DNA of 61,826 nucleotides, the filler included, from Jimgerdemannia flammicorona (taxonomy: Eukaryota): NCBI GenBank assembly GCA_003990765.1. It is 3 parts of 3 records of this genome, joined end to end, with 100 filler letters (N's around TTAATTAATTAA, not from the genome) between each part and the next. Parts side by side here need not be neighbours in the genome. Positions count along the whole stretch, not along the records: positions 20,646 to 41,188 come from RBNJ01001655.1; positions 41,289 to 61,826 come from RBNJ01001656.1; 1 more part is not named here. The stretch is one strand, 5' to 3'. Below are positions 38,879-46,207 of the stretch, one piece after another. A program made the position numbers and the translations under genes. A model generated the notes under the pieces. That model ran no database searches. It was not told the origin of the DNA and saw only the letters and a list, made by a program, of their open reading frames with translations. Each line of letters begins with the position of its first letter. Position 1 is the stretch's first letter.

Positions 38879-40086
38879 ATGAATAAGGAGCTCTACTACA
38901 GAATTATCACCTATCTGAGATAGTGAAAGATACCCCAACATCTGAAAGAATGGATATAAATAATTATTAATAGAATATAGAAATAATTTGAAACTAATAG
39001 AGAAGTACTAAAGAAAGAAAAACTACTAGTCATATCCAAACACAAGAAAGAGCAAGTAATGAAATCAGTATATGAACTTAGTCATCTAAGAGGAACAAAT
39101 ATATATAATAAAGCAAGAAGAACAATGTGGTGGTCAGGAATAGAGGAAGATATCAGACAATTTATCAAGACCTATGATAAATATCAGAAACAAAAACAAG
39201 ACCAATAAAATCAGACCCTGGGATTAGCACACATAGAACTAGTACCCTTTGCTCTTATAGCAATATATAATTGATTCACTATCTCTGATATTGACTAGCA
39301 ACTGATATATCATTATCATTGTAGACCTTTTTATAAAATGGATAGAGACAGGACTCCTCAAGGAAGCCAATATACAGTCAATTGTCAATTTCTTTCATAA
39401 AGAAATTATCTACTGATTCAAAACTTCAGCACAAGTAACTACAGATAGAGGAACAGAATTTGTGAATCAGTTCTTTGAGATTCTCTACAAAAAGTACAAA
39501 ATCTAGTATATTCAGACTACAGTATATCACTCTTAAAGAAATGGACAAGCAGAAAGGACTAATAAGACTCTCAATAATATCATCACCAAGATCTACAATA
39601 ACTATAAAAATTAGGATCACTATCTGTTAATATGTAGCATTATCTGCTCTTCAGGATATCTAATTACAAAGTACTCATTTGACTCTATAAGAGATACTGT
39701 TTGGAGAAGAAAGTTCTCAAAAAACTCTATTGTCCAATAGAGATACCATTTGGAAATACATAGATACAGAGATATGAAGACTATACTAAATTAGAAAGAA
39801 AGCTGAGGATTATATAACTAAGGTACAGATACTACAATGAAATAATATAGAAAAGATTACAAGCTATTGAAGATTATTAAGATAGGAGATAAAGCTCTGA
39901 TATATCAGAACATAGTAGAAGCTTCATAGTTACAAAAACTAGAGCCTAAGTGGGAAGAATCTTATCTTGTACAAGATATAAAAGAAACTACCTTTTGGCT
40001 ATAAAAACTCTTAGGCAATAAAAACTCTTAGGCATAATCATCTCCACTATTATTCACTGAAACTGACTCAAGAAGTATCATAGCTA
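38879..40086 (+). pseudogene. Gypsy integrase (HHCC remnant, DDE core, GPY/F), apparently its own ORF
   Basis: ATG at 38879 overlaps the end of the RNase H frame (CAT GAA TAA). MWWSGIEEDIRQFIKT, VDLFIKWIET, TDRGTEFVNQ, KLEPKWEESY. Confidence 0.85.
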
Positions 40087-40722
40087 ATCAATAGAGTACT
40101 GCCACAGCCCTCAAGATCATCAGTGCTATACAGCAAGCTATAGAAAGACAATAGTATACTACTGAGTCACCAAGTATGGAAGAATTCTTTGATAGTATAT
40201 AGAGTATAGTCCAGATATACTTGTTATGAATCTCACACTTCAAAACCTACCAGAACTAAACTGAGTTTCAAGAATACTTTAAGTTGGGACAGCTACTAAA
40301 CTCACAGCTAGATATGAGAAAAGAAGACTAGATTAGAGAGTACTAGCTCTCTTATACTCAGATCACAACTGCCAAACAAGTTAATAAGATATTCAAGAAT
40401 GATGAGTTAGTTCTAGCCTATCTTTATGAAGTAGTCCCAAGAGACTTTGGATATATCAAGAGATAATACTGAGAGTATGTAATGATACAAATCACATTCA
40501 CATAGTCTATTAAAAAAAAAAAAAAAAAAAAAAAAAAAAAAAAAATAAAAAAAAAAAAAAAAAAAAAAAAAAAAAAAAAAAAAAAAAAAAAAAAAAAAAA
40601 AAAAAAAAAAAAAAAAAAAAAAGATACAAATCACACAGTATAAGGAGATACAAATTATAGAAGCTTGGAAGTTTGAATAGGATGTTTCAGAGATGAATTA
40701 TTTATTCAAGAGAAAGTTGTAA
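40080..40722 (+). pseudogene. Extra ORF (ORF3, ~167 codons) between integrase and the 3' LTR, unknown function
   Basis: One frame runs from the integrase stop region to TAA at 40720-40722 once the poly(A) insertion plus one TSD is removed. Internal stops are TAG/TGA/TAA types derivable by single transitions. Contains EYFKLGQLL...TAKQVNKIF...RDFGYI. Confidence 0.65.
40497..40622 (+). mobile_element. Tiny retroposed insertion (15 nt plus ~110-nt poly(A)) with a 13-bp TSD
   Basis: GATACAAATCACA at 40484-40496 and 40623-40635 flanks TTCACATAGTCTATT(A)n. Confidence 0.75.
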
Positions 40723-41162
40723 TGATTGATTTGAATTAAGAATATGAATCAGAAGAATTAGACATTTAATTATGATATCTGAACCCAATTTCTAATATAG
40801 TATAGTCTTACAAATAGCAATCATTGTTATTTTGCAACTATTAAAGTTTTATGAATGTTAAACTCTTCACAGATGTTGAAGATTTTGCAGATATTGAAAG
40901 ATTCAATACTTGTAAAAAGTGACTAATATATAACTTAGCCACCTTATAGTTAGCAAACTTGTATAAATAACCTAGTATATATCTTAGAGTGAATAAACCT
41001 CAGATTGAAATAGTTCAAAGCAAAGAAAAAGTAAAGAAACTAGTAAGCCTGCAGACAGATATACTTTGAACTCATCCCCTGTATCTTAAGGACTCTGTGA
41101 GAGTCAGAATAAGTCAAGTTTTCAAAATATAGAAATCTACCATACTTCTAAGGTTAGGTATC
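40718..41162 (+). repeat. 3' LTR (truncated by poly-T/contig end)
   Basis: TGTAATG start after a purine tract; colinear with 34314-34765. Confidence 0.88.
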
Positions 41163-43183: not shown

Positions 43184-44609
43184 TTTTAGATGATCTTACT
43201 AAATTATTAAATTTATATTTTTTAGTTATAACAAAATGCCAAGACCATCTAAATGATCTCAGCACTTACAAAGTTTAAAATATCAAAAAAGTAAACTTGA
43301 AGAAGAGATTATAGGTAAATATTATTATATACAAATATTATTAATATTATTAATATATTAATTATAATTATAATTATAATTATAATATAGATGATGATGA
43401 TAAGAGAGAAGAAGAAGATGAAAGAGAAGAAGAAGATGAGAATGATGATGATGATGAAGATGAAGATGATGAGGATGAAGATGAAGATGAAGATATAGAT
43501 GAAGATGAGAATGCAGATGAAGATGAAGATGAAGATGAAGATAAAAAAGCTGACAGCAGTTGGGAACCTCATATTTTTGCACTCAAAGTTCATATGAAGA
43601 ATTTAGAGAATCTATCTCTAAATTCTATTTTAAAATATCACCATATATCATGACATATGGTATTTAGAAACAATAACAGGAGTACTTCTCAAGCTAGTCA
43701 TCTGATTGCAGAAAGTATCAACAAAGGCTTATATTATGCAAAGCTTTTGAGAAGATGGACACAAGATTGGATTGATAACAGAATTCTTCCTATTTCTCAG
43801 CAAGGAAGATATGCTAAGAAGAAAAGTCTTCTTAAAGATAAAAACATTAAACTTGCAGTAGAAACTTATTTAGAAAAAAATAAGTTTACTGCTACTCCAA
43901 AATCTCTTAAAGAACATTTAGAAGAAGAGATTTTTCAATATCAGCAGAATCTACAAAAATTCATGAAGATAAAGCAAGAAGATGGATGCTAAAGATGAGC
44001 TATACTTATAGTAGGCGCAGAAAAGGACTCTATGTTGATGATCATGAAAGAGATGATGTCAAAGTATCCTATGAACAATTTTTAAAGCAGATGGCTGACT
44101 GGAAACCATTTATGGTTCAATGTGATGAAAATTTTCAACCATTACAACACAACATTTCTCTTGGACAACAACATATTCTAGCTACCTATGATGAGGCTAC
44201 TTTCAAGGCAAATGATGATCTAAATTATAGATGGATAATTTCCTCTAAGAAAAAAAAGTAGAGGTGCTAGTATAATGGTTAGTGAATTTCTTCTGGATAC
44301 TGTTGGAAGACTGGCTATATCTGAAAGACAATATAAAGATATGAAGAGGCCAAAGCCTCCAAAAGAAGCTTGTTGTCTACTTGAAATTGGAAAAGCTAAG
44401 AAAGATTATTGGACTGGAAATGATCTAATAGATCAGGTATGTATATTTATAATAATAATTAAATTTAGTAAATAGATTAAATAAAAAATACTTATAATAT
44501 AAATTAATATTATATTTTTAGATTAAAAACAAAGCTATTCCAATTTTCAATGCTATTCATCCCAACTGTATAGCAGTATTTGCATTTGATCATAGTCAAG
44601 GACATTCAA

Positions 44610-46207
44610 TGTACATTGTAATGGTGATCTCAGAATGGTGACATCATCACAGGAGACAGCCTTTCCTTACAAGCCACCAGATCAGAGCACAAGAAGATTA
44701 TATAGCATGACTCATCCAGGCTACAAGATGAGCAATGATGACAAACCATGAGTTATGATGACTACAAGATAAACATCTCAAGAAATATAAAGGAAGGACC
44801 AAGAAACCACAGTAGCAGCAATTAAAACAAGACTCAAAATCCTGAAATAGTTCAAAAGACTCACTATAAACAAAATGCCTATCACTCACCAAACCTCAAG
44901 GTCCAGGAACCACCAAGGCCTCTCAGTTCAAGAAAGGATGTTCCAAGACATCAGGAGAGCCATAAGGACCTGCACCAGAAGGATTCCTAGCCTCAACCTG
45001 GGTATTGGTAACTCTTACCACTTTACCCTCTACCACCATGAAATGGAGACAAGGATTACTACTGCTACTGAATGCCTCTGGATGTGGCAGAAATACGAAA
45101 TAGAGAACCTCCTCTGCCAGGAATTCCCCCAGGCCAGTCCCCAAGAGATACAAGATGACACCTCTATAGATGCACATAAATTGAGGATAGCCAAAAAGAT
45201 CCATCAGGTCTTCAGACATGCACCTTGGTCAATCTCCAACTTAGAGTATACCAGAGTCTCAGACTTCAAGGAATTGTCAGCCTACTACATGGATGCACTA
45301 GAAGCTATGGTGGCCACAGAAGCCCAATCTACCATTACTCTCAAAAGTGATGAAGTAGAGGAGTTCTGGAATCCCATCCTCCAGGACAATTCAGATCAAT
45401 TTCTGCAAGGATTAATCTCAGTATTCTAAGGCCCCAGTATCCAGGTCAGACCCCCTCAAGATCCCACCTTTGTCCCCTACTTTGTGGAGGAAAACATCAT
45501 AGATTGGAGAGCCCCTGATCTGCTGCTGAATGTGATGACATCATCATTGATGACATCATCCTGCTAATCAACACATGTGAAATGAACAAAATGCTTGCAG
45601 AAATGCTTGCTGACCTTATTTCCTTCAAAGATATCCCATCCCTGACCTCTAGTCTTGATGATAGCAATGAAGACAAAGCCCTGAGAATTTTGAACATTTT
45701 ACTCTAATTTGTATGTATAACTATTTGTTTGAACACTTGAATATTTTAGCACTCTGACTTTGTGTAACTGTCAGAAATTATTCCAGAATTCTGATCTTAT
45801 ACAACCAATTGTATAGGTACTCAAATTTGTACTTACAACCTGAAGTTTTCTGTGTTCAAATATCTTATTTGGATATTGGATTTTATATTAGCTTTATATC
45901 TTAGCAACTATTGAATTACATTTTGTATAAATACCCCTCTCATTTCCTTTGAAATAAAGTATTAAAAACACTCAAGCATTCAAGTACCCAACTACTCAAG
46001 AGCACAAAAGTTCCAGTCCTCTACTCAATTCTACACAAGTAAATCCAAGAGATAACAGAACAGTTTAAAGATAAGAAGTTTGAGGACTATAAGATCTTGG
46101 GAAGGCACTCCAATAGAACTTGCTTATAAGAAACTTGTAGTTGGTCTAAAGATACACCTTGAAGAGAATCTGATGTACTTGGAGAACTCAGCGCCCACTA
46201 TATGACA
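44610..46207 (+). mobile_element. Solo-LTR-like insertion (~1.6 kb) inside the transposase
   Basis: Removing it rejoins transposase H-S-(M/I)-Y-A-S-D. TG...CA ends with imperfect terminal inversion; TGTATAAATA (~45925) then AATAAA (~45953), as in other LTRs here. Exact left boundary and TSD are ambiguous (ATGTA/ATATA). Confidence 0.65.
44875..45429 (+). CDS. Uninterrupted 184-aa ORF within the LTR-like insertion; similar to Gypsy ORF3
   Basis: ATG to TAA with no stops in otherwise decayed DNA; motif KYEIENLL...IAKKIHQVF...SDFKEL. Confidence 0.55.
   Translation: MPITHQTSRSRNHQGLSVQERMFQDIRRAIRTCTRRIPSLNLGIGNSYHFTLYHHEMETRITTATECLWMWQKYEIENLLCQEFPQASPQEIQDDTSIDAHKLRIAKKIHQVFRHAPWSISNLEYTRVSDFKELSAYYMDALEAMVATEAQSTITLKSDEVEEFWNPILQDNSDQFLQGLISVF

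Follow-up and report, generated by a model that had tools for sequence, protein, structure and literature searches.

Two decayed open reading frames (ORFs) in a 61,826-nt stretch of DNA from Jimgerdemannia flammicorona (assembly GCA_003990765.1; hereafter the window) very probably belong to a single family of accessory genes carried by Ty3/Gypsy retrotransposons; the gene invariably comes last among the sense-strand ORFs of its element, downstream of pol. N spacers link the three contigs that make up the window (contig 1, positions 1-20545; contig 2, 20646-41188, from RBNJ01001655.1; contig 3, 41289-61826, from RBNJ01001656.1). An earlier note on this DNA had proposed that ORF3 of a Gypsy element on contig 2 and an ORF within a long terminal repeat (LTR)-like insertion on contig 3 represent a single uncharacterised protein family, a proposal that the hhalign, HMMER, sub-family and MAFFT tests presented here support. 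Both of the peptide strings it quoted are found in the frames it gave, and it was correct in describing the two loci as unlinked, the span it named reaching from the last part of contig 2 into contig 3. The family comes in a short form of 153 amino acids (aa), to which ORF3 belongs, and a long form of 215-342 aa that begins with the same ~120-residue, probably helical N-terminal domain; a conserved block (WNP-LQDNPDQ-LQGL / GP-I / P-Y) and a tail rich in acidic residues are found in the long form in addition. All three of the copies found in the window are pseudogenes, damaged mainly by transition-type mutation resembling repeat-induced point mutation (RIP):

40080-40496 + 40636-40680, + strand: ORF3, decayed short form, 153 codons, stop at 40678-40680
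44875..45707, + strand: long-form accessory ORF, decayed, ~277 codons, interrupted by a nonsense codon and a frameshift
2024..2456, + strand: third family copy, decayed remnant of the long-form C-terminal part, ~770 nt 3' of the contig-1 pol stop

Homology of the short and long forms

The evidence that carries this interpretation comes from profile hidden Markov models (HMMs), the step that the earlier note had recommended and one that yielded relatives of both ORFs as well as the third copy, 3' of the contig-1 integrase. When the ORF3-family and long-family profiles were aligned with hhalign, they matched over ~100 columns with a probability of 78-86% (P 1.8e-5 to 4.9e-6) and a score of 40-44, as compared with 12.9 +/- 2.5 (max 21.0, n=166) and 13.0 +/- 2.9 (max 27.8, n=215) for column-shuffled controls and 19.5 and 15.9 for reversed controls; none of the 381 column shuffles scored as high as the real pair. 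The close long-form sub-family and a distant one that contains no window copy each repeat the same register (P 4e-5 and 6.5e-5), and MAFFT alignment of the merged set arrives at it independently, with Y66 invariant and E65, H102, F105 and D122 nearly so. The long-family HMMER profile also recognizes relatives of ORF3, among them P0019 (25.0 bits, p 5.7e-10, reached by 0/200 shuffles), P0010 (19.5 bits) and P0020 (16.9 bits). Across the HMMER cross-family searches, 8 of the 14 ORF3 proteins and 5 of the 8 long-form proteins scored above all of their 200 shuffles, and P0005, which is without the shared domain, scored -1.9, as expected.

The shared N-terminal domain is marked by three collinear motifs, [FW][QH][ED]Y, then A-x-[KR]-[IVA]-[HY]-x-[LVI]-[FL], and D-[FI] ~17 residues later, all of which are present in both window copies. 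The decayed window ORF3 itself gives only a borderline match to the long-family profile (7.6 bits), yet this match stands at the top of 3000 shuffled translations (max 7.3) and, among 3069 windows scanned, of those outside the family copies, the next best of which scored 6.5. Judged by these profile comparisons, ORF3 and the long form are homologous over ~100-120 residues.

ORF3, the short form

Positions 40080-40722 had been assigned to ORF3 as a protein of ~167 aa; the gene is instead 153 codons long and ends at 40680. Its start codon, which overlaps the last pol codons and the pol stop, has been lost and now reads ATA, and the frame is split by a stretch of foreign sequence:

40497..40622, + strand: insertion splitting ORF3, 126 nt, consisting of 15 nt and an A tract of ~111 nt (114 A/126 nt)

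The perfect 13-nt direct repeat GATACAAATCACA borders this insertion at 40484-40496 and 40623-40635, and because of this target-site-duplication-plus-poly(A) pattern the insertion, A tract included, looks like a severely 5'-truncated poly(A) retroposition that does not belong to the gene. Window ORF3 aligns without gaps to the intact 153-aa relative P0019 (87/153 residues identical) and is given 151.4 bits by the ORF3-family HMM. Each of its nine in-frame stops falls at a column where relatives mostly have R, W or Q, and the stops are of transition type, as had been suggested from the sequence. A search with the translation in which stops are read as X returned 8 related proteins among 10 candidates (best E 8.9e-40, 58-70% identity), and a profile search returned 14 among 228 candidates, the full-length P0019 included; four of the relatives share the C-terminal end ..AWEFE. 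We had initially read the region as a non-coding spacer, a reading that was dropped in the face of the open relatives and their gapless alignment.

The long form and its relatives

The contig-3 ORF had been described as ending at 45429 (44875-45429, 184 aa). It in fact runs to 45707, and the in-frame TAA at 45427-45429 is a nonsense mutation at a position that holds Q in 5/5 close relatives. A frameshift near 45510-45520 places the acidic C-terminal tail in the next frame, where it ends ..RILNILL before the TAA at 45705-45707. The long-family HMM scores this ORF at 389 bits, reading through the TAA at 45427, and detects the tail at 20.7 bits in the +2 frame. Six long-form relatives were found among 37 candidates (best 5.5e-92, 271 aa), and an exhaustive profile search covering 1.84 billion representatives gave 5 at E <= 0.001, of 138-342 aa and down to 28% identity. 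Among viral contigs, no relative of either ORF3 or the long-form family was found.

An intact long-form member of 291 aa is carried by a metagenome contig, L001 (one locus among 390 pattern matches). The contig-3 ORF differs from it at 103/71/127 sites in codon positions 1/2/3 over 214 codons, corresponding to a nonsynonymous rate (dN) of 0.57, a synonymous rate (dS) of 2.75 and a dN/dS of ~0.2, with dS saturated and one partner, the window copy, a pseudogene. A ratio near 1 had been named in advance as telling against the family; the value obtained, qualified by saturation and by the pseudogene partner, suggests constraint on the long form. L001 also carries a ~33-nt motif (TCAGGCGGAAC..CAGAACA) on either side of its ORF, at 174-206 and 1483-1515, ~1310 nt apart.

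The third copy was recognized on contig 1 by the long-family HMM (36.5 bits, HMM positions 157-250, at 2024-2281) and confirmed by blastn, with 61% identity over 215 nt to 45349-45561. Its tail reads ..VILNF.., and an N-terminal half was searched for in the contig-1 copy and was undetectable.

Elements that carry the gene

Decayed regions were searched against Pfam as translations with stops read as X. On contig 2, ORF3 belongs to an element whose paired LTRs and domain order (protease, reverse transcriptase, RNase H, integrase) fit Ty3/Gypsy, and in which no Chromo match was found by Pfam at E <= 0.01:

34314..34781, + strand: 5' LTR, starts TGTAATGG; TATAAATA at 34570; AATAAA at 34596
34869..40085, + strand: decayed gag-pol with many stops and frame changes; zinc-knuckle gag
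~36193-36579, + strand: protease-like segment of pol (Pfam RVP_2, under the curated cut-off)
36988-37365, + strand: dUTPase, between protease and reverse transcriptase (Pfam 9.7e-16)
37747-38208, + strand: reverse transcriptase (Pfam RVT_1 4.5e-19)
38398-38784, + strand: RNase H (Pfam RT_RNaseH_2 1.8e-24)
39038-39199, + strand: integrase zinc domain (Pfam Integrase_H2C2 7e-8)
39300-39509, + strand: integrase core (Pfam rve, under the curated cut-off)
40708..40716, + strand: polypurine tract AAGAGAAAG, between the ORF3 stop and the 3' LTR, abutting the LTR start
40718..41163, + strand: 3' LTR; TATAAATA at 40962; AATAAA at 40992; carries no ORF

The two LTRs are direct repeats, beginning at 34314 and 40718 with 84-86% identity, and their alignment starts exactly at TGTAATG. 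A primer-binding-site-like TGGTGCC lies at 34782, directly 3' of the 5' LTR, whose 3' end we infer from the adjacent TGG; the 3' LTR is truncated by a T run and the contig end. The pol product ends ..LKKYHS, with a TAA at 40083-40085, and changes frame near its end because of a 17-nt tandem duplication at 40002/40019.

The LTR pair differs at 60 of 442 aligned positions, and 59 of these 60 differences are transitions; among the 46 changes with a scorable neighbouring base, 24 lie in a CpA/TpG context. Copies of the contig-3 unit described below, found in run X1, also differ chiefly by C>T (49) and G>A (27). This pattern suggests that elements decay in this host by a RIP-like or deamination process, possibly RIP itself, and the divergence of the contig-2 LTRs is therefore unusable for dating the element.

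The contig-1 remnant follows a second Gypsy pol, one that bears a chromodomain:

1..1261, + strand: 3' end of the chromodomain-bearing pol (Pfam), stop TAG at 1259-1261
27-131, + strand: integrase zinc domain (Pfam Integrase_H2C2 9.6e-7)
875-1015, + strand: SH3 (Pfam SH3_Tf2-1 3.9e-11)
1091-1240, + strand: chromodomain (Pfam Chromo 1.7e-6)
2480..2700, + strand: LTR-like promoter/poly(A) block; TATAAATA at 2643; AATAAA at 2668

A tblastn comparison of the contig-1 integrase with that of contig 2 gave no match at 1e-3. The LTR-like block 3' of the remnant is 63% identical over 237 nt to 34405-34628 of the contig-2 5' LTR (LTR positions 91-314, E 1.9e-8) and 66% identical to 40919-41024 of the 3' LTR.

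Placement of the gene relative to the LTR

In the contig-2 element the gene is internal: ORF3 lies between pol and the polypurine tract, with 37 nt from its stop to the 3' LTR, the tract included. The long form on contig 3 is placed differently, within a repeat unit that resembles an LTR:

44617..46172, + strand: LTR-like repeat unit with the long-form ORF; starts TGTAATGG; TATAAATA at 45926; AATAAA at 45953

The first 40 nt of this unit match the terminus of the contig-2 LTR from base 1 (16 vs 7.0 +/- 1.4, 0/5000 shuffles), and its TATAAATA and AATAAA have the same order and spacing as in the contig-1 and contig-2 LTRs. A TATAAA at 44786 stands 89 nt 5' of the ORF's ATG, and a TATA motif 80-90 nt 5' of the ATG is found in the window long form and in L001 alike. 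The unit thus combines a terminus homologous to a proven LTR terminus with an internal TATA box and a poly(A) signal. Another copy of the unit has a different left flank at 44616; the right border lies somewhere between 46172 and 46211. Contigs of run X1, which has 0.07 of the words, cover only bins 44596-46223 and neither flank, and their cover of 45484-45853 is very low and uninformative on expression or on the junction after the ORF. The ORF-like flanks of the unit (43654-44475 and 46163-46465), which may be transposase, match no Pfam family.

We consider it probable that the contig-3 copy is LTR-borne, with the 5' border of the LTR upstream of the ORF and the ORF forming part of U3. The contig-2 LTR looks like a short version lacking the ORF, because the contig-1 block 2480-2700 is homologous to positions 91-314 of that LTR. 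In every case the gene seems to be the 3'-most ORF of the genomic RNA, with a polypurine tract/LTR-terminus module either after it or before it. Of the placement given in the earlier note, the position of ORF3 directly after integrase stands, and the position inside an LTR is likely for the contig-3 copy only. On contig 1, the 14-nt motif TATATGAGGATGGC occurs on either side of the ORF remnant, at 1441 and 2433; bases 3-52 of L001 match contig 1 at 1423-1472 (28 vs 12.2 +/- 1.8, 0/1000 shuffles), a segment that holds the first TATATGAGGATGGC copy, and the pair might mark a duplicated LTR-border module.

Nature of the protein and its possible role

No Pfam family reached threshold for either ORF or for their relatives, and a PDB sequence search found no relative of either family, its one chance match having an E of 0.1. 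Foldseek against the PDB returned nothing at E <= 0.001 (best E 1.6, generic helical bundles), and the ESM Atlas gave unnamed clusters only, one row being a helix-turn-helix regulatory protein (HTH_3 on 15% of members) at 0.92, which we regard as a lead only. Confidence in the AlphaFold2 models is low (pLDDT 47.7 and 53.3). ORF3 was modelled as wholly helical; in the long form, the shared domain was modelled as helices that follow the same order. That the protein is alpha-helical had been anticipated, and these mostly helical models make it probable for the family.

The family had also been judged to be neither env nor chromodomain, and both judgements hold. The maximum Kyte-Doolittle 19-residue mean is 0.19 for P0019, 0.74 for P0001 and 0.64 for P0008, and neither a transmembrane segment nor a signal peptide-like stretch was found by hydropathy in these three proteins. 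No env match in Pfam meets threshold, the nearest being a sub-threshold Herpesvirus Glycoprotein_B match (E 0.15) in one ORF3 member, and Chromo is unmatched in the ORF3 relatives as well as in the contig-2 element. Charge is unevenly distributed in P0001, with a net +8 over residues 1-60 and a net -26 over residues 141-271.

Because of its position, compactness and charge pattern, we tentatively favor a protein that acts in trans to regulate transcription or RNA of the element itself. The N-terminal domain would bind nucleic acid or chromatin and the acidic tail would recruit host factors, so that the regulator would activate the LTR or handle element RNA, much like retroviral accessory regulators. 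In the LTR-borne state the ORF would sit behind its own TATA box and use the LTR poly(A) signal, and any LTR could then serve as a small expression unit. A more speculative extension, which we think rather unlikely, is that the accessory gene can move as a cassette: where it sits with respect to the polypurine tract and LTR-terminus module would switch, so that one Gypsy lineage would have it internally and another within U3. Wherever it lay in U3, each LTR, solo LTRs among them, would be a gene complete in itself.

Alternative explanations

Several observations weigh against parts of the interpretation given above. Compared directly, the two window copies are at chance level (local BLOSUM62 score 32 vs 28.5 +/- 4.8 shuffled; z 0.7, with 442/2000 shuffles reaching the score), and the 29-residue block that had been aligned between them has only 6 identities, although both of the blocks noticed are the best-conserved motifs of the family; on the shuffle statistics that had been proposed as a check, the window pair is no better than controls, which to the letter would refute the shared family, and the profiles of the intact families lie far beyond their controls. 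Most database relatives of ORF3 are partial, beginning or breaking off within the ORF, P0019 alone being full length, and selection on the short form would have to be argued from deep conservation alone, while for the long form there are the saturated dS and the pseudogene partner already mentioned. The database relatives all lie on short contigs without readable element context, and the start of the contig-1 LTR cannot be fixed. Against the putative regulator role stand the models of low confidence, the missing fold match and the unnamed Atlas clusters. As to placement, the contig-3 unit begins with TG, but neither a target-site duplication nor a partner LTR was found for it, and a 12-purine run and TTGTAAT stand straight 3' of the L001 ORF stop (AAGGAGGGAGGA and TTGTAATAAG), a combination of purine run and LTR-start-like sequence with a chance of ~2e-4 by rough hand estimate; in L001 the long form thus appears to be internal and not LTR-borne, and comparison of the L001 post-ORF region with the window LTRs gave nothing significant.

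If 40080-40722 were only the pol-to-3' LTR spacer of a dead element, and the similar blocks an accident of AT-rich sequence, the chance-level score of the window pair would be expected, as would the 10 stops in 143 codons before the A tract, which is about the base-composition expectation (the other frames have 12 and 13), and the -2.8 bits of the ORF3 region in the whole-window long-family search. We give this explanation next to no credence, the open relatives of ORF3 and the cross-family profile tests having already refuted it. Capture of a host gene, with the shared domain of cellular origin, taken once or twice by Gypsy lineages and carried as a passenger, is improbable for other reasons. 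LTR retrotransposons do acquire extra ORFs and share them between unrelated retroelements, as described in excerpts of PMC5408684, and the lack of readable element context around the database relatives is in keeping with capture; yet the search of 1.84 billion representatives gave only the five proteins of 138-342 aa, none of them larger or multi-domain, all three window copies are at the 3' ends of elements, the overlap of the ORF3 start with the pol stop is the compact arrangement typical of an element's own genes, and the family is conserved across lineages with different pol (one with a chromodomain, the other with a dUTPase and no chromodomain). Of another kind is the suggestion that the protein acts in counter-defence against RNAi or methylation silencing, or as a particle or structural helper; an anti-silencing protein was among the possibilities raised in the earlier note. 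The host attacks elements heavily, as the near-total predominance of transitions in the LTR pair attests, and a counter-defence gene would be advantageous; no result supports either role, however, neither Pfam nor the PDB showed similarity to any suppressor or capsid family already known, and we consider these roles doubtful.

The most serious alternative concerns placement, namely that the ORF is never LTR-borne and in all cases has pol on one side and the polypurine tract on the other. The contig-3 unit would then be a rearranged 3' fragment or a non-autonomous derivative made of the ORF and a short LTR, its left end bearing a duplicated LTR-terminus motif. The sequence straight 3' of the L001 stop fits this possibility, as do the TATATGAGGATGGC copies flanking the contig-1 remnant, the weak alignment of the contig-3 post-ORF region along the whole contig-2 LTR (27 vs 20.6 +/- 3.2, 49/1000 shuffles) and the negative result, on contig 3, for a partner LTR and a target-site duplication. 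We nevertheless think it on the unlikely side, since the left border of the contig-3 unit is common to a copy with a different flank, no pol precedes it and cover ends at both borders, its opening 40 nt line up with a proven LTR terminus from base 1 of both, and no polypurine tract follows the contig-3 ORF. An LTR-borne long form on contig 3 is accordingly the placement that we adopt below as probable.

Other features of the window

Several further features were noted on contigs 1 and 3:

14000-20500: GC-rich region (0.44-0.52) whose GC skew is very strong, reaching 0.51; resembles a long interspersed nuclear element, with an endonuclease/exonuclease/phosphatase ORF at 17001-17843 and a reverse transcriptase ORF at 18740-19216
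41315-42575: foldback-like sequence with 158-nt terminal inverted repeats 90% complementary and inner palindromes at 41629-41854; related arms at 51085-51205, possibly an element of the miniature inverted-repeat transposable type
42740-43190: array built of 14- and 19-nt repeats of the GGGAGACGGGCGAT type, with its reverse complement after it; the arms, 42804-42934 and 43030-43160, are 92% complementary
48163-49365: tandem repeats of ~380-420 nt, 3 copies, 60-90% identity
53428-55544: large inverted repeat, nested; the arms, of 476, 323 and 108 nt, are 81-91% complementary
56837-57262, - strand: retroviral-type integrase SH3 remnant (3.2e-13)
61151-61825, - strand: terminal portion of a protein kinase gene, lying at the contig edge (1.1e-5)

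Comparison with known systems

Additional ORFs are widespread in LTR retrotransposons, and to our knowledge almost none of them has a known role. Extra ORFs are thus already known in these elements, and what appears unusual here is that one gene family seems to occupy positions either side of the LTR border. Among retroviruses, accessory genes situated within U3 of the 3' LTR, or overlapping it, include sag of mouse mammary tumour virus, nef of human immunodeficiency virus and bel/tas of foamy viruses, and some of the proteins they encode transactivate the LTR. These genes have in common with the arrangement proposed here a coding sequence in U3 at the 3' end of the genomic RNA; they differ in belonging to vertebrate hosts, no similarity of sequence or fold to them was found here, and the LTR placement in the present family rests on one copy. 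Retroviral and errantiviral env shares the position after pol, but env has a signal peptide and a transmembrane anchor, whereas the present family has neither by hydropathy, is small, and has models that are mostly or wholly helical.

In the literature we found no name or description of such a family and, among the papers listed, none on an ORF within an LTR; a text search of PMC8647823 and PMC3248453 gave nothing on extra ORFs. The family is kept across Gypsy lineages with different pol and has no relative in Pfam or the PDB, and its two profiles offer a direct handle for genome and RNA surveys. What the window documents is the existence and anatomy of the family rather than its activity, all three copies being dead.

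A close parallel in position is found in the plant Retand Gypsy elements, where, according to excerpts of PMC11963269, the region between pol and the 3' LTR has lineage-specific extra ORFs of unknown function, as here, encoding TRP28-domain proteins that are suspected of DNA binding and of regulating transposition. The Retand ORFs are antisense and their region measures 2.9-6.6 kb, in contrast to a sense-strand gene in a region of 0.6 kb that overlaps the pol stop; in the present case one lineage also bears the ORF inside an LTR-like unit, and its proteins match no Pfam family. LTR retrotransposons of bdelloid rotifers likewise have a non-env third ORF across retroelement lineages and a dUTPase in pol, though the third ORFs treated in the excerpted text encode env-like proteins or enzymes that can be recognised as such (GDSL esterase, DEDDy exonuclease), whereas the present family has no recognisable domain or membrane segment (PMC5408684).

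The functional analogy that we favor is with CERV of the C. elegans element Cer1, which is species-restricted, is not env, follows pol, and is needed by Cer1 in trans for nuclear export of its genomic RNA, as stated in the part of PMC10309623 that describes it. CERV is made from a spliced mRNA that shares peptides with GAG (PMC10309623). Should the LTR-borne state prove true, solo LTRs would be protein-coding units and not mere promoters, and both the annotation of LTR remnants and trans-complementation among copies would have to be rethought. On the less likely movable-cassette reading, LTRs with the gene in U3, even those of dead copies, would supply a Rev-, Tas- or CERV-like regulator in trans to the whole family of elements.

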